From Anaerolineae bacterium (GTDB lineage: Bacteria; Chloroflexota; Anaerolineae; CG2-30-64-16), in contig DAOTZV010000098.1 of assembly GCA_034434235.1 (NCBI GenBank), positions 8,879-72,878 on the forward strand: a stretch of DNA of 64,000 nt, written 5' to 3'. Positions 9,202-44,365 of this stretch are shown here, piece by piece; positions within the stretch are counted from its first letter, which is position 1, and the number at the start of each line of letters is the position of its first letter. A model generated the notes under the pieces. That model worked only from the letters and a program-made list of their open reading frames with translations, had not been told where the DNA came from and searched no databases. The translations under genes and the position numbers were made by a program.

Positions 9202-9335
9202 GACGCGGCGACACGAACTCTTGTTCTGGTGTTTTTGACAAAATCGTGCATCTGGGATATCCTATTAATCACGGTCCGCTGTACGGATCGCACACGCACC
9301 GATTCGAGCCGCCAAACAAGAAAGGATGCACGCCC

Positions 9336-16590: not shown

Positions 16591-17985
16591 CTATAGTGCG
16601 GCCGCTATTTCCTCGCGTACCCACGCCTCGGGCTCCACCGCGAGCCGTTCTATCAGCGCCTGCATGCCCTCGCGTTCGCCGATCTGCCCCAGGGCCCACG
16701 CCGCGTGCCCGCGGATCAGCGGCTCGGCATCGGCCAGCAGGCTCACGAGCGCCGGCACCAGGGTCCGATCGCCGGCGTTGCCCGCCGCGACGCATGCATT
16801 GCGCACCAGTCCGCGACGTCTGGCGCGCCAGATCGCCGTGCCCCGAAAGCGTCGTCTGAATGCCTCTTCGTCGAGCATCAATAGCTCCCGCAGCGGCATG
16901 GTCGCCCGCCCTGGATCGGCCGGCCAGCGCTCGCGGGGAGCCGGCGTCGCGCGCCGGTTGTATGGGCACACTTCCTGACACACATCGCATCCGAACACCC
17001 AGTTGCCCATGAGCGGCCGCAGATCGCGAGGGATCGGCCCGCGCAGCTCGATGGTCAGATAAGCGATGCAGCGCCGCGCGTCCAGCACGTGCGGCCCGAC
17101 AAACGCGCGCGTCGGGCACGCATCTAGGCAACGCGTGCATCGGCCACATCCACCCCCCTGACGGGAGGCCCCCCCAACCCCCCAATTCTGGGGGGCGCCA
17201 CCTTCCCCCCGCGATCGGGATGCCTGCGAGGCCCCCCCAACCCCCCAATTCTGGGGGGCGCCACCTTCCCTCCGCGATCGGGATGCCTGCGAGGCCCCCC
17301 CAACCCCCCAATTCTGGGGGGCGCCACCTTCCCCCCAGGGTTGGGGGGCCGGGGGGCCGTTCCCTTCCCCCCAGGGTTGGGGGGCCGGGGGGCCGTTCCC
17401 TTCCCCCCAGGGTTGGGGGGCCAGGGGGGCCGTTCCCAACTCGACGGCGTGATCGCGGGCGAGATCCTCCGGCACCGCCAGCGCCGCCAGGAACGTCCAC
17501 GAGCCCATCCCCGGCGCGATCAAGCAGGTGTTGCGGCCGATGAAGCCGAGACCGGCCTGGGCCGCGAAGTCGCGTTCCAGCAGCGGCGCGGTGTCCACGC
17601 ACGCCTTGCCCAGGCCCGTCCGGCCGGTGCGCGCCCGGATGAACGCGTCGAGCGCGAAAAGCCGCGCCTTGAGGAGGTCGTGGTAGTCGGCCGCCCACGC
17701 GTAGCGCGCAAAGCGACCGTGCGCCGGATCGTACCAGGTCGAGGGCGGTGGGCCAGAGAAGTAGTTGGCCGCCACCACGATCAGGCTGGTCATACCCGTC
17801 AGCCACGAGGCGGGATCGAGCCGTTCGGCCGCGCGGTTGGCCAGATAGGCCATCTCGCCGGCATAGCCGGCCGCCAGCCAGTCGGCGAACGCCGCGGCAT
17901 GGGCCGGCCGGCCGATGGGGATGATGCCGCCGCGGTCGAAGCCGAGCGCTTGCGCGTGGACCAGGATATCTTCAACCAGGGTCAT
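16591..17985 (-). CDS. queG: Epoxyqueuosine reductase QueG with ~100-aa in-frame tandem repeat insertion
   Basis: N-terminal cobalamin-binding region, 4Fe-4S motifs CGRCTRCLDACP / CDVCQEVCP, C-terminal HEAT repeats. Inserted (PQPWGEGNGPPA)x3 and (GGAPQNWGVGGASQASRSRREG)x3. Confidence 0.75.
   Translation of the reverse strand: MTLVEDILVHAQALGFDRGGIIPIGRPAHAAAFADWLAAGYAGEMAYLANRAAERLDPASWLTGMTSLIVVAANYFSGPPPSTWYDPAHGRFARYAWAADYHDLLKARLFALDAFIRARTGRTGLGKACVDTAPLLERDFAAQAGLGFIGRNTCLIAPGMGSWTFLAALAVPEDLARDHAVELGTAPLAPQPWGEGNGPPAPQPWGEGNGPPAPQPWGEGGAPQNWGVGGASQASRSRREGGAPQNWGVGGASQASRSRGEGGAPQNWGVGGASRQGGGCGRCTRCLDACPTRAFVGPHVLDARRCIAYLTIELRGPIPRDLRPLMGNWVFGCDVCQEVCPYNRRATPAPRERWPADPGRATMPLRELLMLDEEAFRRRFRGTAIWRARRRGLVRNACVAAGNAGDRTLVPALVSLLADAEPLIRGHAAWALGQIGEREGMQALIERLAVEPEAWVREEIAAAL
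17150..17450. repeat. Tandem repeats inside queG coding sequence: 63-bp unit x3 and 36-bp unit x3, both in frame
   Basis: Direct DNA repeats gaggcccccccaaccccccaattctggggggcgccaccttccccccgcgatcgggatgcctgc and agggttggggggccggggggccgttcccttcccccc. Confidence 0.85.
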
Positions 17986-18026
17986 GCCGGTATTATACTA
18001 TACTCTACTTGCGGCTGCGGTATAAT

Positions 18027-20726
18027 ATGCGCATGTCCGTCGAGTCCGCGTTGCAGGCGCTTCGGTTCGATCCGCGCTTCATGCGCCATGTCGGTCGCTG
18101 GGTGCATGTGCCGGCTCGCGCGGCGCGCTTCGCGGCCTTCCCGGCCGGGTTGGATCATCGCCTGGTCGAGGCGCTGGCGGCGCGCGGGGTGCACCAGCTC
18201 TACGCACACCAGGCCGAGGCGGTGGCCGCCGGCCTGCGGGGCGAGCATGTCGCCGTCGTGACGCCGGCCGCCAGCGGCAAGACGCTGTGCTACAACCTGC
18301 CCGTCCTTCAGCGCCTCCTGGCCGATCCCGCCGCGCGCGCCCTCTATCTCTATCCCACGAAGGCGCTGGCGCACGATCAGTTGGCCGGATTGCGCGAGCT
18401 GGCCGATCTGACCGTGGCGCACGCGGGCAACTTGCGCCGCAGATCCGAGCTGATCTGCGCGACCTATGACGGCGACACCCCTTCCGCGCAGCGGAGCAAG
18501 ATACGCGATACGGCCCGGATCCTCCTCTCGAATCCCGACATGCTCCACGCCGGCATCCTGCCGCAGCATCCGCGCTGGGCCGCCTTCTTCGCCAACCTGA
18601 CCGCGGTCGTGATTGACGAGATGCACGTCTATCGCGGGGTGTTCGGCTCGCACGTGGCGAACGTGTTGCGCCGCCTGCGCCGCATCTGTCGCTTCTACGG
18701 CAGCGACCCGCGCTTCTACCTGGCATCGGCCACCATTGCCAATCCCCAGGAGCTGGCCGAGCGCCTGGTCGAAGCGCCGGTCACCGTGATCGGCCCGGAA
18801 CGCGACGCCGCGCCGCAGGGCGAAAGGACGATCCTCTTCTACAACCCGCCCCTGCTCGACCCGGCGCTGGGGATCCGCCGCAGCGCCGGCCTGGAGGCCG
18901 CCGAGCTGGCCGCGCACTTCGTGCGGCACGACGCGCAGACCATCGTCTTCGGCCGCGCCCGTCTGACGGCCGAGCTGATCCTGACGTACCTGCGCCAGCA
19001 GCTCGCCGGCCGCGACGCCGCCCCACAGGAGTTCGGCGGTCTCGCGGCCACCGACGTGCAGCGCGCGATCCGTGGCTATCGCAGCGGCTACCTGCCGGCC
19101 GAACGCCGCGCCATCGAGGCGGGATTGCGCGATGGCACGGTGCGCGCGGTCGTGGCCACCAACGCCCTGGAACTGGGGATTGACATCGGCCAGATGGCCG
19201 CGGCGCTCCTGGCCGGCTATCCGGGCACGATTGCCGCCGCGCGGCAGCAGATGGGCCGCGCCGGCCGACGCCAGGGGGCGGCCGCGGCCGTGCTCGTCGC
19301 GGCGGCCGATCCGCTCGATCAATACCTGATCGCCCATCCGGAATACCTGCTCGAGCGGACGCCCGAACACGCCCGCCTCAATCCCGACAACGCGGTGATC
19401 CTGGCCGGCCATCTGGCGTGCGCCGCGGCCGAGCTGCCGTTCGAAGCCGGCGAGGAGTTCGGCCGGGCCGGCGTCGGGTTGGGGCCCGATGGCCTGGCGC
19501 GGCTGCTGGACGAGCTGGTGGAGGCGGGCAAGCTCTACCGCGCAGGCGGCCGCTACTTTTGGGCCGGGCCCGGTGCGCCCGCGGCTGCCATCAGCCTGCG
19601 CAGCAGTGCGGCCGAACGGGTCATCATCCAGGCGCCGGATCCCGCGGGCAAGCCCCAGGTGCTCGGCGAGATCGAACGCACCGCGGCCCCTCTGTTCGTC
19701 TACGAGGGGGCCATCTACTTGCACGAAGGGACGAGCTACCTGGTCGAGCGCCTGGATTGGCCGGCCGGCATCGCGTACGTCCGGCCCCTCGAGGCCGATT
19801 TCTACACCCGCCCTGTGGTCGGCGAAGGGGTCGAGGTGTTGGCCGTCCACGCGACGATGCACTTCGGCGCTCCGGCGGCCGATGAAGACAACGAGGCTTT
19901 CCGATGTTCGTGGGGCCGCGTTCGCGTCGCGCGGCAGGTGACCGGCTACCGGATCATGCGCCGGGGAACCAACGAGGTGTTGGGCTTCGGCGCCGTGGAC
20001 CTGCCCGAACATGCCTTCGAGACGGAAGGGTGTTGGCTGGAGCTTGCGGCCGATCTGGTGGAACAGCTTCGGCTGGAAGGGCGGTGGCTCTCGGATCCCA
20101 ACGATTACGGCCCGAACTGGGCCCAGCAGCGCGCGGCCGCTCGCGCCCGCGATGGCTTTCGATGCCAGGGTTGCGGCGCGCTGGAAGTCCCCGGTCGCCA
20201 GCACGATGTCCATCATCGCATCCCGTTGCGTGCGTTCGTCGCCGATCCCCACCTGCGCGGCGGCCTGCCGCCGGAACGCGCCTGGGAAGCGGCCAACGTG
20301 CTGGAGAACCTGGTGACGTTGTGTCCGGCGTGCCATCGCCGGGCCGAGACGGCCGTGCGCCTGCGCTCGGGGTTGGGCGCTGCGGCTGCGGCGCTCCTCG
20401 GCGTCGCGCCGATCTTCCTGATGTGCGATCCGGCCGATCTGGGCATGGTTGTCGAGCCGCAGGCGCCCGCGAGCGGCTTGCCCGCCATCACGATCTTCGA
20501 GCAGACGGCCGGCGGCATCGGCTATGCCGAACAGTTGTATCGCCTGATGCCCCAGGCGCTGGCGGCCGCGCTCGACCTGGTGCGCGGTTGTCCTTGCGAG
20601 CACGGTTGTCCGGGGTGCGTGGGCCCGACGCCGGAGCACGACTACATGCCGGACGCCAAAGCCCTGGCCCGCGCGCTTCTGGAAAGAATCGCTTCGGTTT
20701 CACCTTGCCAATCGTCGCAGCCGTGA
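18027..20726 (+). CDS. MrfA-like ATP-dependent helicase (DEXH helicase + DUF1998 Zn-binding domain) with inserted HNH endonuclease domain
   Basis: Helicase motifs (AASGKTL, DEMH, SAT). C-terminal 4-Cys DUF1998. ~94-aa insert carries HNH signature CQGCG...HDVHHRIP...N...CPACHRR and is absent from the paralog at 41912. Confidence 0.75.
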   Translation: MRMSVESALQALRFDPRFMRHVGRWVHVPARAARFAAFPAGLDHRLVEALAARGVHQLYAHQAEAVAAGLRGEHVAVVTPAASGKTLCYNLPVLQRLLADPAARALYLYPTKALAHDQLAGLRELADLTVAHAGNLRRRSELICATYDGDTPSAQRSKIRDTARILLSNPDMLHAGILPQHPRWAAFFANLTAVVIDEMHVYRGVFGSHVANVLRRLRRICRFYGSDPRFYLASATIANPQELAERLVEAPVTVIGPERDAAPQGERTILFYNPPLLDPALGIRRSAGLEAAELAAHFVRHDAQTIVFGRARLTAELILTYLRQQLAGRDAAPQEFGGLAATDVQRAIRGYRSGYLPAERRAIEAGLRDGTVRAVVATNALELGIDIGQMAAALLAGYPGTIAAARQQMGRAGRRQGAAAAVLVAAADPLDQYLIAHPEYLLERTPEHARLNPDNAVILAGHLACAAAELPFEAGEEFGRAGVGLGPDGLARLLDELVEAGKLYRAGGRYFWAGPGAPAAAISLRSSAAERVIIQAPDPAGKPQVLGEIERTAAPLFVYEGAIYLHEGTSYLVERLDWPAGIAYVRPLEADFYTRPVVGEGVEVLAVHATMHFGAPAADEDNEAFRCSWGRVRVARQVTGYRIMRRGTNEVLGFGAVDLPEHAFETEGCWLELAADLVEQLRLEGRWLSDPNDYGPNWAQQRAAARARDGFRCQGCGALEVPGRQHDVHHRIPLRAFVADPHLRGGLPPERAWEAANVLENLVTLCPACHRRAETAVRLRSGLGAAAAALLGVAPIFLMCDPADLGMVVEPQAPASGLPAITIFEQTAGGIGYAEQLYRLMPQALAAALDLVRGCPCEHGCPGCVGPTPEHDYMPDAKALARALLERIASVSPCQSSQP

Positions 20727-20861
20727 TATAATGGTTATGTGTGTCTGCACACAACCTCCTGTCGCGTTCACAATCGGTGGCTTTGCGGAGGGGCGCCTGG
20801 CCGGGCACCCCTGCTCCGCCCCGAAAGCCGACGGTGGCATCCCAATCGCAGCAAGAGGGTC

Positions 20862-29611: not shown

Positions 29612-30282
29612 AGCGCGAATTCCGCCTGGCGGGCTATCTTCTGCTGCTGGCGATCTTGCTGGGATCGCTGGCCGCCGGCCCGCAGGTTTGGGCTACGCCA
29701 GATCAAACCGCGAGCAACCAGACGGTGCCCACGCGGACACCGAAGCCGCCCGCGCCGACCGTTGCGCCCACGGCCGCGCCGCGGCCCACGTCTGAGCCGC
29801 AGCCGACCGCGCCGCAACCCACTGCCACAGCGCCCGTCGCGGCCACGCCGTCGCCCACGGCCGTCGCGCCGGCGGGTCGCGTCGACTTGAGCCTGGCGCT
29901 GAGCGTCGCTCCGGTGCAGGTCTGGTCGGGCGTGACGGTGGTCTACACATTGACGGTGACGAACCTTTCGATGAGCGCCCTGCGCGATGTCGTGTTGCTC
30001 GATCCGTTGCCCGCCGACCTGGAGCCCGGCGCGATCCTGGTCGGCCGCGACGTCGGCTGGCAATCCGGCGCCCTGCGCGCCACCTTCGCGGAGCTGGCGG
30101 CCGGCGCACAGGCCGAGGTGATCTTCACGGCGAAGGTGGCGGCCGGGGTGCCGGCCGGCAAGGTGATCGTCAACCGGGCTACGGCCACGGCCGGCGCGGC
30201 GTCGGCCAGCGCGAGCGCGGCCATCGCCATGCCGCCGGCCGAGCTGCCCGCCGTCGGGAGCGGTGCCGTCTGCATTCGTTGA
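29608..30282 (+). CDS. Secreted DUF11 (conserved repeat domain) protein
   Basis: Signal peptide, Pro/Thr/Ala linker, DUF11-like block VVYTLTVTNLSMSALRDVVLLDPLP. Stop codon lies inside a 23-bp tandem repeat. Confidence 0.55.
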   Translation: MKREFRLAGYLLLLAILLGSLAAGPQVWATPDQTASNQTVPTRTPKPPAPTVAPTAAPRPTSEPQPTAPQPTATAPVAATPSPTAVAPAGRVDLSLALSVAPVQVWSGVTVVYTLTVTNLSMSALRDVVLLDPLPADLEPGAILVGRDVGWQSGALRATFAELAAGAQAEVIFTAKVAAGVPAGKVIVNRATATAGAASASASAAIAMPPAELPAVGSGAVCIR

Positions 30283-30330
30283 CGTATTTTGTCTACATTC
30301 GTTAACGTATTTTGTCTACATTCGTTGACG
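30273..30330. repeat. 23-bp direct tandem repeat x2.5 (CATTCGTTGACGTATTTTGTCTA)
   Basis: Units at 30273-30295 and 30296-30318 plus a partial copy. Spans DUF11 stop and the region immediately upstream of the DUF2723 ATG. Confidence 0.8.
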
Positions 30331-30338
30331 TTTCCTGG

Positions 30339-32296: not shown

Positions 32297-34132
32297 ATGA
32301 CGCGCAAGGCAATCCTCATCCTTTTGTGCGCCCTGCTCGTGGTGGCCGCCGGCTGGTTGGGCTGGACGGCCTATCGCGCGGCCGCCTCTGCCCGGCTCGC
32401 GCTGGCCGACCTGCGCCAGCTCCAGGCATTGGCCGCCGACCCGCAGCCGCAGGCGTTGCCGGCGTTGCGTCAGTCCCTCGCCGGGCTGGAGGAACACCTG
32501 ATCGCCACGCGGGCCGCGGCGCGGCCGTTTCTGTGGCTTGCGCCGGGCCTGGGCTGGATACCCGAATACGGGCCGACCCTGCGCGACGCGCCCGCCTTGT
32601 TGGATATGGCCATCGAGCTGGCCGGTGCCGGCCGACAGGCGCTCGACGTGGTGGCGCCGCTCGCCGATTTGCCCGGCCGATCGGGCCAGGGCGAATGGAT
32701 CGGCCAGATGCTGACGGCCATCTCGGCAGCCGGGCCGCAGCTCGAGGCGGCCGACGCACGTCTGGCCCGCGCCGAAGCGCTGCGGCAGCGGGTGCAGGGG
32801 CCGTTGCATCCCCGACTGGTGCCGCAGGTCGAACGGCTGGACCGCTATCTGCCGCTCCTGCGCGCCGGATTGCAGGCCGTGCGGGCCGCGCCGGTCCTGA
32901 TGGGCATGGATAGGCCGCGCACCTATCTGGTGCTGGCGCAAAACAACGACGAGATCCGGCCCACCGGCGGCTTCATCAGCGGCGCGGGGCACGTGCGGCT
33001 CGACCGCGGCCGCATCGTCGAGATCCGGCTCAGCGACAGCTATGCGGTGGATAACTTCAAGCAGCCGCATCCCGACCCGCCCCCGGCCCTGCGCGAACAT
33101 ATGGGCGCCGACCTGCTGGTATTCCGCGATAGCAACTGGTCGCCCGATTTTCCGACCAGCGCGCAGGTGGCCCAGGCGCTCTACGCCCAGGATCAGGGGA
33201 TCGCCACCGACGGCGCCATCGCGCTCGACATGGAGGCGGTGCGGCTGCTGGTGGCCGCGCTCGGTCCGTTGGAAGTGCCCGGCCGGCCCGGTCAGATCAC
33301 GGCCGCGAACGTCATTGCCGAGATCAAGCGCGCGTGGGAAGCGCCGACCGCCAGCGCCGATACGGTCGAGAAGCCGACGGCCGACTGGTTCAAGAAGCGC
33401 AAAGACTTCATGAGCGAGATCGCGGCCGCAGCGCTGGCCAGGCTGCTGGATGGCCGCCAGCTCGACCTGTTGGCGCTCGGCCAGGCCGTGCTCGCCATGC
33501 TCGACGAGCGCCATCTCCAGATCGCGGTGGCCGATGAGACGGTGGCCGCGCTGCTGGCCGAACGTCGCTGGGACGGCGCGCTGGCGTTGCCCCGGCAGGG
33601 CGACTTCCTGGCCGTGGTTGATGCCAACGTCGGCTTCAACAAGGCGAACGCCGCGGTCAAACAAGAGATCGGCTATCGCGTGGCGCCGGAGGGGGACGGC
33701 TTGACGGCCACCCTCGTCGTGACCTATACCCATACGGCCCGGCCGTTGCCCGCCAACGCCGCGTGCGAACGCTCGCTCAAGTACGGCGATTCCTACCAGG
33801 CGCTCGCGGAACGCTGCTATTGGGACTATCTGCGCGTCTACGCGCCCGCCGGCAGCGAGCTCCTCGCGGTCGAGGGATTGAACCGCAGCCAGGCGGCACG
33901 CGGGGAAGGCGGCGCGACCGTGTTCAGCGGCGACTTCGTCTTGCGGCCCGGCGCGCAGACGGCGATCACCTTGCGCTACCGGCTCCCGCCGGCCGTTTCC
34001 CCCGCGGACTACACCCTGACCGTCCGCAAGCAGGCCGGCACACTGGCCGTGCCCCTGCGGGTACAGGTCGGCGCGTGCTTGTGGCAAACAGATTTGAAAC
34101 AGGACCGCATGTTTGCGTGTCGAAAGATGTAA
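32297..34132 (+). CDS. DUF4012 domain protein (N-terminal TM anchor), polysaccharide-locus associated
   Basis: Motif YLVLAQNNDEIRPTGGFIS typical of DUF4012. RBS GAGAGG before ATG 32297. Confidence 0.55.
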   Translation: MTRKAILILLCALLVVAAGWLGWTAYRAAASARLALADLRQLQALAADPQPQALPALRQSLAGLEEHLIATRAAARPFLWLAPGLGWIPEYGPTLRDAPALLDMAIELAGAGRQALDVVAPLADLPGRSGQGEWIGQMLTAISAAGPQLEAADARLARAEALRQRVQGPLHPRLVPQVERLDRYLPLLRAGLQAVRAAPVLMGMDRPRTYLVLAQNNDEIRPTGGFISGAGHVRLDRGRIVEIRLSDSYAVDNFKQPHPDPPPALREHMGADLLVFRDSNWSPDFPTSAQVAQALYAQDQGIATDGAIALDMEAVRLLVAALGPLEVPGRPGQITAANVIAEIKRAWEAPTASADTVEKPTADWFKKRKDFMSEIAAAALARLLDGRQLDLLALGQAVLAMLDERHLQIAVADETVAALLAERRWDGALALPRQGDFLAVVDANVGFNKANAAVKQEIGYRVAPEGDGLTATLVVTYTHTARPLPANAACERSLKYGDSYQALAERCYWDYLRVYAPAGSELLAVEGLNRSQAARGEGGATVFSGDFVLRPGAQTAITLRYRLPPAVSPADYTLTVRKQAGTLAVPLRVQVGACLWQTDLKQDRMFACRKM

Positions 34133-34238
34133 GGCGAAATTTATTTCGCCTTTTTCGTTTCGTGAGATGTAAGGCGAAATTTATTTCGCCTTCTTTCGCT
34201 TCGTGAGCTGTAAGACGAAATGAATTTCGTCTTACAGC
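34128..34238. repeat. Family-B palindromic repeats, 3 tandem copies (TGTAAGGCGAAATTTATTTCGCCTT x2, CTGTAAGACGAAATGAATTTCGTCTTACAG)
   Basis: Hairpin units with ~40-bp periodicity starting at the DUF4012 stop codon. Confidence 0.85.
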
Positions 34239-37211: not shown

Positions 37212-37227
37212 GGCAGGGCCTCCAGAT

Positions 37228-37421
37228 GTAGGGCGAGCTCAAGCTCGCCTTACGCCGTAGGGCGAGATCGCTCTTCCATGTTGTAGGGCGAGCTTAAGCT
37301 CGCCTTACGCCGTAGGGCGAGATCGCTCTTCCATGTTGTAGGGCGAGCTTAAGCTCGCCTTACGCCGTAGGGCGAGATCGCTCTTCCATGTTGTAGGGCG
37401 AGCTCAAGCTCGCCTTACGCC
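37228..37421. repeat. 55-bp tandem repeat x3.5 built from Family-B-like palindromes (GTAGGGCGAGCTYAAGCTCGCCTTAC + GCCGTAGGGCGAGATCGCTCTTCCATGTT)
   Basis: Units start 37228, 37283, 37338, 37393. Directly upstream of pcm RBS; overlaps last 18 nt of the geranylgeranyl reductase ORF. Confidence 0.85.
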
Positions 37422-41911: not shown

Positions 41912-44365
41912 ATGGCTTTCGATCCGGCCGTTTTCCTGAACGAACTGCGCCGCCGCCGGGATTACGCCGGGCAACTGGTGCATGTGCAGACGATCCCGGC
42001 CCGCGCGCCGCGCTACGGCGAGCTGCAGGTTCAGCTCAGTCCGCCGGTGCGGCGGGCGTTGGCCGCGGCCGGCGCGGAGCGGCTCTACACCCATCAGGCC
42101 GCCGCGATCAATGCCGCGCTGTCGGGCCAACATGTCGTCGTCGCCACCTCCACGGCCAGCGGCAAGACCCTCTGCTTCAACGTGCCGGTGTTGGAGGCGC
42201 TGGCGCGCGATCCGCTGGCGCGTGCGCTCTATCTCTACCCCACCAAGGCGCTGGCGCAGGATCAGCTCGGCAAGTGGAAGGCGCTGGTCGAGGGCGCCGG
42301 CGAGGGGATCATCAATCCCCTCGCCGCGACCTATGACGGCGACACGCCCCAGGCCGCGCGCGCCCGCGTGCGCAAGACCGCGCGCGTCCTGCTGACCAAC
42401 CCCGACATGCTCCATACCGGCATCCTGCCCAATCATCCGTTGTGGGCCGAGTTTTTCCGCCATCTGAAATATGTGGTCATAGACGAGGCGCACACCTATC
42501 GGGGCGTGTTCGGCTCGCAGGTGGCGTGCGTGTTGCGTCGGCTGCGCCGGGTGTGCGCGCTGTATCAGGGCGCAGAAGGCCGGTGGCCCGAGGCCGAGGC
42601 CCGGAAGCGCGCGAGCAGCGGCGGCGCCGGGCCTCTCGGCCGGGGGCCCCTCTTCATCGCCACCTCGGCGACCATCGCCAATCCGGCCGAGCACTTCGCG
42701 CTGTTGACCGGCCTGTCCGCGACGGTCATCGCCGACGACGGCTCGCCGCACGGCCCGCGCACGTTCGCGCTGTGGAACCCGCCCTTCCTGGATCGCAGCC
42801 ACACGGCCCGGCGCAGCGCCAATCACGAGGCGAGCGACCTGTTCGCGGCGCTGGTGAGCGCCGGCGTGCGCACCATCGCGTTTACGCGGGCGCGCGTCAT
42901 CGCGGAGCTGCTCCTGCGCTATGCGCGCGCCGCGCTCGGCCGCAACCGCGCCACGGCCGGCCTGGCCGACCGCATCGCGGCCTATCGGGCCGGCTACCTG
43001 CCCGAAGAGCGCCGGCGCATCGAGCGAGAGCTGTTCGGCGGCCGGCTGTTGGGCGTGACGGCCACCAGCGCGCTGGAGCTGGGGATAGATGTCGGCGGCC
43101 TGGACGCGGCGATCCTGGTCGGCTATCCGGGCACCATCGCCAGCTTGTGGCAACAGGCCGGCCGCGCCGGCCGCGGGGACGCGGCTTCGCTGACGATCCT
43201 GATCGGCCTGGACGACCCGCTCGATCAATACTATATGCGCCATCCCGCCGAGCTGCTCGGCCGGCCGCACGAGAACGCGCTGCTCGACCCCGATAACTTC
43301 TACATCCTCCAACGCCACCTGCCGTGCGCCGCGCACGAGATCCCGCTGCGCGTGGCGGCCGAAGAGCAGCCCCAGGCGGCCGATCAGGCCGGCATGGACG
43401 ATGAGTCGCTTTTCGGGCCCGGCTTCGTGGACGCGATGGTGGCGCTGGAAGAGAGCGGCGTCTTGCGCTTCACCGGCGAGCGGTGGGTCTACGCGCGGGC
43501 CGACTACCCGGCGCAGGACGTCAGCCTGCGCGATGCGGAGGGCGAGCGCTTCGCCATCCTGAACGAAGCCAACGGCTACCGCATGTTGGAGGAGATCAGC
43601 AGCACGACCGCGCCGTTCCGCGTCCATCCGGGCGCCATCTACCTGCACCAGGGCGAGTCGTACCTGGTGACGGAGTACAACGCCGCGCTGCGCCATGCGA
43701 TCGTGAAGCCGGTCAACGCGGACTACTATACCCAGCCGCGCGAGGTCAACGATGTGCGCATCGTGCGCTCGCTGCGGCATCGGCCGCTTGCGGCCGGCGC
43801 GGCCTATCTGGGCAAGGTGCGGGTGCGGGGCCAGGTGATCGGCTATCGCCGGCTCCAACAGTTCACCGAGGCGGTGCTCGGCGAAGAGCCGCTGGACATG
43901 CCGGTCACGGAGTACGAGACGATCGGCCTGTGGTGGGACCTGCCGCCGGAGCTGCCGGCCGAACTGGCCCTGCGCGGGCTCGACTTCCTGGGCGGCCTTC
44001 ACGCGGTCGAGCACGCGGCCATCGGCATCCTGCCGCTCTTCGCCATGTGTGACCGCTGGGACATCGGCGGGTTGAGCACCCCGCGCCACCCCGACACCGA
44101 CGCCGCGCAGATCTTCATCTACGACGGCTTTCCGGGCGGGGTGGGCATCGCGGAGAAGGGCTTCGAGCTGTTGCCCGAGCTCTGGTCGGCCACGCTGGAC
44201 GTGATCCGAGGTTGTCCGTGCGAGGGCGGGTGTCCGAGCTGCGTACAAAGCCCCAAGTGCGGCAACTTCAACCAGCCGCTGGACAAACAGGCCGCCGTGG
44301 CGATCCTCCAGCGGCTGCTGGCCGGACAACGTTCCGCTACGGCCGGATCTCGAAGTCGTGGGTGA
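41912..44365 (+). CDS. MrfA-like ATP-dependent helicase (DEXH helicase + DUF1998), paralog without HNH insert
   Basis: [16 protein letters not shown] motifs. C-terminal [18 protein letters not shown] zinc cluster. ~45% identical in conserved blocks to the gene at 18027. Confidence 0.75.

Follow-up and report, generated by a model that had tools for sequence, protein, structure and literature searches.

Gene 1, the first of two related helicase genes in the 64-kb window (the whole stretch of DNA analysed here), encodes an SF2 helicase of the MrfA/YprA family that carries a predicted HNH endonuclease domain inside its MZB/DUF1998 region. The reading favoured here, to which a probability of roughly 60% is given, is that this protein is an MrfA-lineage DNA-repair helicase into which a phage-type HNH domain was inserted long ago, and that it acts as a helicase-nickase in excision-type repair of bulky adducts. 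This reading is drawn from the intact helicase motifs, the MZB zinc site, the conservation of the HNH domain, its co-divergence with the helicase, the housekeeping context of the gene and the recurrent link to MrfB in sister lineages.

Architecture of gene 1 and its HNH insert

The first-pass annotation had described two helicase-DUF1998 paralogs in this DNA, and both open reading frames, together with their shared Pfam domains, were found as described (Table 1). The true start of gene 1 is probably the ATG at position 18033, since the homolog consensus opens with MSVES and a TATAAT box lies before the gene at 18021-18026. No LexA-type box was found before gene 1, and the sole match to the LexA/Cheo-type GAAC-N4-GTTC pattern in the window, at position 9215, was far off and at chance level.

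Table 1. Position and basis of the two helicase genes and of the domains of gene 1.
Feature	Position	Strand	Residues	Basis
Gene 1, MrfA/YprA-family SF2 helicase with internal HNH	18027-20726	+	899 aa	ORF, Pfam, AF2, Foldseek
RecA1 and RecA2 motor core	18153-19376	+	~43-450	PF00270/PF00271; limits approximate
WH, OB and CON canopy	19377-20045	+	WH ~451-524, OB ~525-590, CON ~591-673	PF22982 WHD_HRQ1; limits approximate
First short helix of MZB, directly before the insertion point	20046-20084	+	674-686	AF2 helix 675-683; MrfA alignment
Inserted HNH (His-Me finger) domain	20085-20357; core motif 20163-20336	+	687-777 (91 aa)	PF01844
Rest of MZB/DUF1998	20358-20696	+	778-890	PF09369 MZB, E 8.8e-21, aa 787-865
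Gene 2, HNH-less YprA/SftH-type helicase (comparator)	41912-44365	+	817 aa	ORF, Pfam, TIGR03817

The gene 1 protein matched the Pfam series DEAD (PF00270, 4.4e-29), Helicase_C (PF00271, 5.3e-10), WHD_HRQ1, HNH and MZB/DUF1998, and sequence comparison with B. subtilis MrfA (PDB 6ZNP) gave an E value of 1e-193. The full-length AF2 model (pLDDT 89.6, pTM 0.90) had 6znp_A as its best Foldseek match (E 3.7e-75, ~38% identity over the alignment). The limits of the motor core were set by alignment to MrfA and from the published MrfA domain limits (PMC7797055), and for those of the canopy the beta-rich secondary structure of the model was used in addition. Motif I (GKT, residues 84-86), motif II (DEMH, 197-200, where MrfA has DELH) and motif VI (QQMGRAGRR, 407-415) were located, and GKT, DEMH and QxxGRxGR (407-414) were invariant across 82 sequences.

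In the MZB region, MrfA residues up to ~633 align with the first-helix stretch of gene 1 and MrfA residues 653-733 with the stretch that follows the insert; MrfA thus has ~20 residues (633-653) in place of the 91-aa insert, and no nuclease domain. The MZB zinc site of gene 1 (C855, C857, C861 and C864) is invariant among homologs, the LMCD motif at 798-801 is conserved, and the polypeptide stops after MZB, with no C-terminal Vsr or PLD nuclease detected by Pfam. With its dual-RecA core, WH-OB-CON canopy and four-cysteine MZB, gene 1 belongs to the YprA/MrfA (DUF1998) family, and it shares with MrfA (YprA; 6ZNP/6ZNQ/6ZNS) both the zinc site and the domain order NTR-RecA1-RecA2-WH-OB-CON-MZB. 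By homology to MrfA and SftH it is probably a 3'-to-5' ATP-dependent translocase/helicase (PMC7797055, PMC3424565).

The limits of the insert were taken from a 65-sequence MAFFT alignment, in which the gap in the paralog corresponds to exactly residues 687-777; in a BLASTP comparison of genes 1 and 2 (45% identity) the extra residues of gene 1 fell between ~686 and 772. The extra segment that the first-pass annotation had seen inside DUF1998 is therefore real and absent from the paralog, while its size and limits, given there as ~94 aa at 20088-20372, are replaced by those in Table 1. The complete HNH signature claimed for it is also present (CQGCG...HDVHHRIP...N...CPACHRR), and PF01844 scored 28.1 bits in the whole protein and 35.3 bits when the insert was taken by itself (cut-off 21.4), the same profile matching 35/35 family members. 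The predicted functional residues are the zinc ligands C713, C716, C766 and C769, the catalytic H730, which aligns with the catalytic histidine of GVE2 HNH, N761 and the metal ligand H770. In the AlphaFold model the insert (pLDDT 88-90) forms a discrete folded domain within a continuous polypeptide and has the beta-beta-alpha-metal arrangement, so that the His-Me finger fold, on which the claim of a nuclease domain hung, was recovered. Sequence and model agree that this is a true HNH domain, with a discrete predicted fold and all catalytic and zinc residues in place, and the idea of a helicase with an internal nuclease domain gains support at the level of prediction.

Gene 2 served as the comparator. 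Its Pfam domains are DEAD, Helicase_C, WHD_HRQ1 and MZB/DUF1998, with PF01844 in gene 1 only, and it matches MrfA with 531 bits. Gene 2 reaches the cut-off of TIGR03817, the SftH-type 'DECH helicase' family of the helicase/secretion neighbourhood (878.3 against 874.1 bits), whereas gene 1 stays below it at 641.9 bits, in a match that is split into two stretches by the insert.

Distribution, descent and gene neighbourhood

A search for other DUF1998 proteins with an HNH insert verified the layout in 80 species-representative genomes, a lower bound (at least 80 species), whose labels are almost entirely Chloroflexota and nearly all Anaerolineae or relatives. The HNH motif was intact in 80/80 of these genomes and present in 120/120 matches and 81/81 loci, and the insertion point was identical in every homolog examined. 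Across 64 genomes (46-68% identity), H730, N761, H770, C713/C716 and C766/C769 were kept in at least 95%, and one homolog, P0052, carries the HNH with an extended loop separating CxxC from HH. None of the 120 closest relatives of gene 2 carries an HNH domain. The insert is not universal among MrfA orthologs, being absent from MrfA itself and from gene 2; the HNH-MrfA architecture is thus neither unique to gene 1 nor universal in the family.

The HNH-bearing helicases form one monophyletic clade. The segment between HH and CxxCH has a lineage-specific length of 22-51 residues, and this length follows the helicase tree (the comparison being with the helicase tree, not the species tree), which argues for a single ancient insertion. 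In a compositional test for recent acquisition, the GC content of the insert was equal to that of its flanks. Taken as sequence evidence, these data indicate that the HNH domain was inserted once, long ago, in the loop after the first MZB helix, and has been under purifying selection since. Among viral contigs no HNH-MrfA was found, and two contigs encode weakly similar HNH-only domains.

The gene neighbourhood was examined for MrfB. The first-pass annotation had seen no MrfB-like exonuclease beside either helicase, and a tblastn search with 12 MrfB orthologs (E<=1e-3) gave no match in the whole window; adjacent MrfB is likewise absent in the closest clade of gene 1. A gene for MrfB, a 3'-5' exonuclease, does lie downstream on the same strand in 12/81 HNH-MrfA loci, and in a protein fragment, P0273, HNH-MZB is fused to MrfB, so that the HNH domain is no simple replacement for MrfB. 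An MrfAB module, that is, an adjacent or fused MrfB with DEDDh exonuclease and TPR, is accordingly found in those 12 loci and in P0273 and not in the window. The neighbours of gene 1 are queG and genes for an SDR, a GNAT, an epimerase and an aminotransferase, a housekeeping context. All-against-all BLASTP clustering of the neighbours at 82 loci revealed no universal partner gene and no defence-type cluster, and the only functionally telling recurrent neighbour was MrfB (12 loci). Neighbour clusters common to many of the 82 loci proved to be antisense shadow ORFs and not partners.

Alternative roles for the inserted domain

Defence effectors with a fused nuclease are numerous among YprA-family helicases (PMC12458937), and gene 1 could be a single-gene anti-phage or anti-plasmid enzyme whose motor loads on foreign DNA and whose HNH shreds it, in the manner of the helicase-nucleases of Druantia, ARMADA and DISARM. 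Such a role is considered unlikely, though it is the strongest of the alternatives. Druantia DruE, ARMADA and TALON do share with gene 1 the helicase family, a covalent nuclease and small zinc modules in OB-CON-DUF1998, inserts that are typical of the defensive branch; their nucleases, however, lie at the C-terminus and are of the Vsr, PLD or RNase H-like type, unlike the internal HNH (PMC12458937), and they carry inserts of BrxA-like and beta-barrel type as well as conserved partners. Gene 1 has none of these partner genes. No DrmB/C, methyltransferase, BrxHII or DruH partner and no C-terminal Vsr or PLD nuclease of the DISARM, Dpd, Druantia, ARMADA, BRIGADE or TALON kind was found for gene 1. 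Among HNH enzymes, the insert most resembles those of the phage and restriction types (GVE2, McrA, TagI and Cap5), which would suit defence. GVE2 HNH endonuclease (5H0M/5H0O) is a small free-standing phage protein, whereas the HNH of gene 1 lies within a helicase encoded on the chromosome, and the gene 1 clade differs from the related phage families phrog_8446 and phrog_144 by its HH-CxxCH segment. PADLOC was tried for a defence-system assignment and matched BrxHI, SngC, DruE and DrmA, but over the generic RecA core only, with nothing over the C-terminal module. Gene 1 is also far closer to MrfA than to any defence helicase, its neighbours are housekeeping genes with MrfB as the only recurrent functional partner, and the co-variation of loop length with the helicase tree, with the motif intact throughout, is more readily explained by one ancient insertion than by gains that were repeated and recent.

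Less probable still is that the HNH no longer cuts DNA and has been retained for a structural or DNA-binding role of its zinc module, such as the sensing of lesions or forks. YprA-family proteins have repeatedly gained non-catalytic zinc-binding modules in the same region (PMC12458937), Burby and Simmons speculated that the MrfA zinc domain recognises lesions (bioRxiv 10.1101/426304), and a nuclease is already available to those lineages in which MrfB is adjacent or fused. Against this stands the conservation, at the level given above, of the residues needed for catalysis alone, namely H730 (the general base), N761 and H770; these are usually lost once an HNH domain has been inactivated.

That the insert is the remnant of a selfish element without host function, be it an intein or a homing HNH endonuclease inserted in frame, is effectively refuted. 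Small HNH proteins of phage type are its nearest free-standing relatives and the two viral contigs encode weakly similar domains, but the insertion point is fixed, conservation is strong, the insert co-diverges with the host protein, its GC is ameliorated, the domain is folded within an uninterrupted chain in the AF2 model, and no Hint/intein Pfam domain was found. As an intein the insert, which begins ...GRWLSDPN and ends ...RLRSGLG, lacks the Hint splicing blocks (Cys or Ser at the N-terminus, and a C-terminal His-Asn before Cys, Ser or Thr) and is too short (91 aa against a minimum of ~130 aa).

A putative helicase-nickase in DNA repair

The repair helicase-nickase reading can be set beside known helicase-nuclease pairings. 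The MrfAB system consists of a helicase and an exonuclease, and its published model is silent on the origin of the strand end or nick (bioRxiv 10.1101/426304); some HNH-MrfA orthologs retain the MrfB partner of MrfA, while the gene 1 locus differs from that of MrfA in having no adjacent mrfB in the window. SftH of Mycobacterium smegmatis, a DUF1998 SF2 helicase that is monomeric, works 3'-5' and has no conserved partner, showed no nuclease activity when purified (PMC3424565). Yeast Hrq1 is cited as a eukaryotic relative because gene 1 matches Pfam WHD_HRQ1; it is described in a preprint as stimulating the separate Pso2 nuclease in crosslink repair (bioRxiv 10.1101/773267). Hrq1-Pso2 thus shares the logic of pairing a helicase of the family with a nuclease to deal with adducts or crosslinks, although Pso2 is a separate metallo-beta-lactamase protein and not an inserted HNH. 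Human ZRANB3 combines an SNF2 dsDNA translocase with a C-terminal HNH, whereas gene 1 combines a YprA ssDNA helicase with an inserted one, and the two combinations are not homologous.

In MrfA, MZB forms the lining of the DNA-entry funnel and borders the route by which the displaced strand is proposed to leave (Roske et al. 2020), so the HNH domain, placed here from its insertion point alone, would probably lie in front of the motor, at the fork, and nick one strand. Such a nick would provide what the MrfAB model leaves unspecified, an endonucleolytic incision or entry point. The helicase would then peel the damaged strand off, for degradation by MrfB where there is one; some lineages have it adjacent or fused, and in this genome it may be encoded elsewhere or be missing. 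The whole would work as an ATP-driven machine for the excision of bulky adducts. As neither the window nor the closest clade has an adjacent MrfB, the pathway may differ from that of B. subtilis MrfAB. The MrfAB module helps cells to survive mitomycin C. What MrfA does is, however, reported to differ between species (bioRxiv 10.1101/426304), and a mitomycin-type substrate for gene 1 is therefore speculative.

No description of an HNH domain within the MrfA/DUF1998 architecture was found in the searchable literature, which covers few subscription journals, so that this absence is not proof. The nucleases reported in the main text of a 2025 family-wide survey are confined to Vsr, PLD and RNase H types at the C-terminus and to MrfB, either separate or fused, with no HNH mentioned there (PMC12458937). 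Helicase-nuclease fusions are common in general and automated annotation already flags the domains, which limits the importance of the finding. Internal HNH insertion adds to the known nuclease attachments of the YprA family. Here a natural MrfA lineage has retained, where DNA would enter the motor, an endonuclease predicted to be catalytically complete, in some cases alongside MrfB; whether incision is coupled to helicase action could be tested directly with it, and the compact putative helicase-nickase is amenable to biochemistry. More tentatively, HNH-MrfA may be a self-priming excision-repair enzyme, in which the HNH incises and the same polypeptide unwinds the damaged strand, and in which, with adjacent or fused MrfB, one operon or protein would carry out incision, unwinding and degradation. 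If this were true, it would give these bacteria a UvrC-independent route of excision.

Two helicase paralogs and the inserted domain

The first-pass annotation had proposed two paralogous helicase-DUF1998 proteins, and both proved to be real. The ORFs are listed in the table below, and the proteins share Pfam matches to DEAD, Helicase_C, WHD_HRQ1 and MZB/DUF1998, while PF01844 (HNH) was matched by gene 1 only (28.1 bits against a cut-off of 21.4) and not by paralog 2. Gene 1 and paralog 2 share 45% identity, and their alignment is broken between gene 1 residues 685 and 773. A MAFFT alignment of 65 sequences placed the paralog 2 gap at exactly amino acids 687-777 (91 aa, nt 20085-20357), confirming the extra segment and HNH motif that had been put at ~94 aa and 20088-20372.

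Coordinates of the ORFs and tandem arrays in the window
Feature	Position	Strand	Detail
queG-like ORF	16591-17985	-	Pfam QueG_DUF1730 + Fer4_16 + HEAT
Two in-frame tandem arrays in queG-like ORF	17165-17437		63 bp x 2.7 and 36 bp x 3.1, 98% matches each
Gene 1 ORF	18027-20726	+	899 aa
Tandem array	30268-30331		23 bp x 2.8
Tandem array	34125-34233		41 bp x 2.7
Tandem array	37227-37421		55 bp x 3.5, 98%
Paralog 2 ORF	41912-44365	+	817 aa

The sequence of gene 1 places it close to Bacillus subtilis MrfA/YprA (PDB 6ZNP; E 1e-193, 649 bits), which it matched in two pieces around the insert, MrfA residues to ~633 aligning ahead of it and those from 653 onward behind it. A full-length AlphaFold2 model built with 82 sequences (pLDDT 89.6, pTM 0.90) likewise had MrfA as its top Foldseek match in the PDB (E 3.7e-75, target-normalised TM 0.77). 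The gene 1 family shows no variation in helicase motifs I, II (DEMH) and VI or in the four cysteines of MZB. Paralog 2 is further from MrfA (531 bits versus 649) and just reached the cut-off of 874.1 for TIGR03817, the SftH-type 'DECH helicase' model, with 878.3, gene 1 scoring below it at 641.9. The two genes have separate large sets of relatives, in which the organism-named matches were Chloroflexota, and the 120 nearest relatives of paralog 2 all lack an HNH. The RecA1 domain of paralog 2 contains an extra low-complexity segment of ~24 aa that is missing from gene 1, and its gene neighbours are an MFS transporter and an OsmC-like gene.

The true start of gene 1 is likely to be the ATG at 18033 rather than 18027, because the homolog consensus N terminus, MSVES, agrees with the former and a perfect TATAAT box (18021-18026) abuts the annotated ATG. 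The consensus promoter scan made no call at this box. With a start at 18033, the mRNA would possibly be leaderless or have a very short leader.

The insert is a His-Me finger domain of the phage/McrA type, as PF01844 was matched by 35/35 isolated insert sequences, the insert profile retrieved the phage GVE2 HNH endonuclease from the PDB (3.8e-5) with H730 aligned to its catalytic histidine, and phage HNH PHROG families matched the insert (best 7e-16). The AlphaFold2 model of the insert alone was also confident (pLDDT 87.6). An intein was ruled out, the insert being only 91 aa and devoid of Hint blocks.

Conservation and source of the HNH domain

The insert was present in all 120 best database matches of gene 1 (60-100% identity). 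A species-level scan, with one genome per species, gave at least 585 candidate loci, and in each of the best 80, and in the window contig, the HNH motif lay within a long helicase ORF. By label, 78 of these 80 are Chloroflexota, mostly Anaerolineae, Anaerolineales or Caldilineales, and the other two are Chloroflexus sp. (L031) and Gemmatimonas sp. (L059, contig CAYRZX010000117.1). A further copy came from a bin labelled Nitrososphaerales archaeon (P0076), nearly all others being Chloroflexota; the L059 and P0076 labels are more likely due to contamination of the bins than to transfer.

In 64 full-length orthologs from genomes, 46-68% identical to the gene 1 protein, 26/97 insert columns were at least 95% conserved, a proportion near those of RecA2 (50/183) and MZB (25/108) and above those of OB (8/63) and CON (8/95). 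These well-conserved insert positions include C713, C716, H729, H730, N761, C766, C769 and H770; a non-catalytic zinc or DNA-binding module is a less well supported reading of the domain. In a neighbour-joining tree made from columns outside the insert, with paralog 2 as the outgroup, the HNH-bearing helicases grouped apart from paralog 2. Between HH and CxxCH lies a variable segment (22, 27-29 or 35 residues, at times longer), the length of which follows the helicase tree, and the GC content of the insert equals that of its flanks. Taken together, shared presence, column conservation, the helicase tree, segment length and GC content indicate a single old insertion that later evolved with its host helicase, with purifying selection on the catalytic residues.

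Searching 1.84 billion cluster representatives with the insert profile returned 772 proteins at E<=1e-10. The top 150 included ~57 helicase-embedded copies, many of them fragments, and ~84 proteins sorted as free-standing, some probably being mis-sorted fragments. Most of the free-standing relatives are 100-400 aa long and carry multiple CxxC/HFC zinc-ribbon repeats, their HNH lying at the very C terminus; the free-standing proteins match phage HNH PHROGs, and share a YGPNW..QR..AR.RD.Y.C..CG leader and a PFRTFGY loop with the Caldilineales-type helicase inserts. The nearest free-standing kin form one family (P0299, P0303, P0307, P0314, P0333 and P0326; 100-340 aa, two to six CxxC...HFC repeats, C-terminal HNH) that matches PHROGs 1271 and 8446. 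That the insert is the remnant of a selfish element is, again, less well supported.

Gene neighbourhood and MrfB

Gene 1 is flanked by a divergent queG and, on the other side, by SDR, GNAT-like, epimerase and aminotransferase genes. A strong sigma-70-like promoter match at 20705-20732 (TTGCCA, 16-nt spacer, TG-TATAAT, 11/12) overlaps the gene 1 stop codon; it presumably serves the downstream SDR gene and suggests independent transcription of that gene. The arrays in the queG-like gene insert repeated peptides (APQPWGEGNGPP x3 and GGAPQNWGVGGASQASRSR x3) between the DUF1730 and 4Fe-4S domains, and the repeats of this housekeeping enzyme seem to have expanded recently. Elsewhere in the window, a short palindrome able to form a hairpin occurs in both the 55-bp and the 41-bp array unit (GGCGAGCT..AGCTCGCC and GGCGAAAT..ATTTCGCC, respectively).

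Clustering of all ORFs in 82 loci revealed no universal neighbour of these HNH-bearing MrfA helicases (HNH-MrfA). A gene of the MrfB type was found downstream on the same strand in 12/81 loci, encoding 408-477 aa (195 aa in L067, cut by the contig end), and in eight of the 12 it overlaps the helicase gene or sits within ~100 nt. In its product, Pfam RNase_H_2 is accompanied by TPR repeats, and the structure of the MrfB exonuclease (8UN9) is matched at 1.5e-31. All full-length MrfB-linked loci on the tree belong to one major clade, in which segments of 22 residues predominate; L024, with 35 residues, is the exception. No adjacent MrfB was seen among tree loci in the window's long-loop clade. 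The earlier statement that no MrfB-like exonuclease lies beside either helicase holds for the entire 64-kb window. One library protein, P0273, is a 775-aa fragment, missing its N terminus, that joins OB-CON-HNH-MZB-MrfB in one polypeptide; it shows one or more weak TPR matches and would by inference unite helicase, endonuclease and exonuclease. Since MrfB adjoins the helicase in 12/81 loci and is fused to it in P0273, the HNH co-exists with MrfB and is not a simple replacement for it.

Proposed role at the fork

In MrfA, much of the DNA-entry funnel is built by the MZB domain, a residue from the conserved MCD(R)N segment contacts the 5'-terminal nucleotide, and the displaced strand probably leaves between MZB and RecA2 (Roske et al., PMC7797055). 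The HNH is inserted behind the first short MZB helix, ~25 residues ahead of the MCD(R)N segment, and from this position and the MrfA structure we infer that it plausibly lies in front of the 3'-5' motor, at the fork. In the published MrfAB model, MrfA recognises the lesion, and unwinding and then degradation by MrfB follow, without an incision step (bioRxiv 10.1101/426304), and MrfB prefers linear DNA, acting only slightly on nicked DNA. The best reading of these data is that the HNH would supply a nick, in the tracking or the displaced strand, making the enzyme a putative helicase-nickase for excision-type repair.

Nuclease attachments described for the YprA family are MrfB, separate or fused, and, in defence systems, C-terminal Vsr, PLD or RNase H-like domains; the survey mentions HNH in one reference only (PMC12458937). 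The HNH-MrfA family belongs to the MrfAB (repair) branch of Bell et al. (PMC12458937). PADLOC matches of gene 1 were to the generic helicase core only, and HNH-MrfA was absent from 2.9 million viral contigs; a stand-alone defence nuclease-helicase is less well supported than the helicase-nickase. Automated pipelines already tag the domains of gene 1-type proteins, which are named merely 'DEAD/DEAH box helicase', and within the searchable literature, the coverage of which is incomplete, an HNH in MrfA, DUF1998 or SftH helicases is an undescribed architecture. The nearest functional analogy is ZRANB3, which also combines a motor with an HNH, although both its motor and its layout are unrelated. 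The fusion of helicase and nuclease is already familiar as a principle; HNH-MrfA, in its observed architecture and conservation, is real, conserved and testable.
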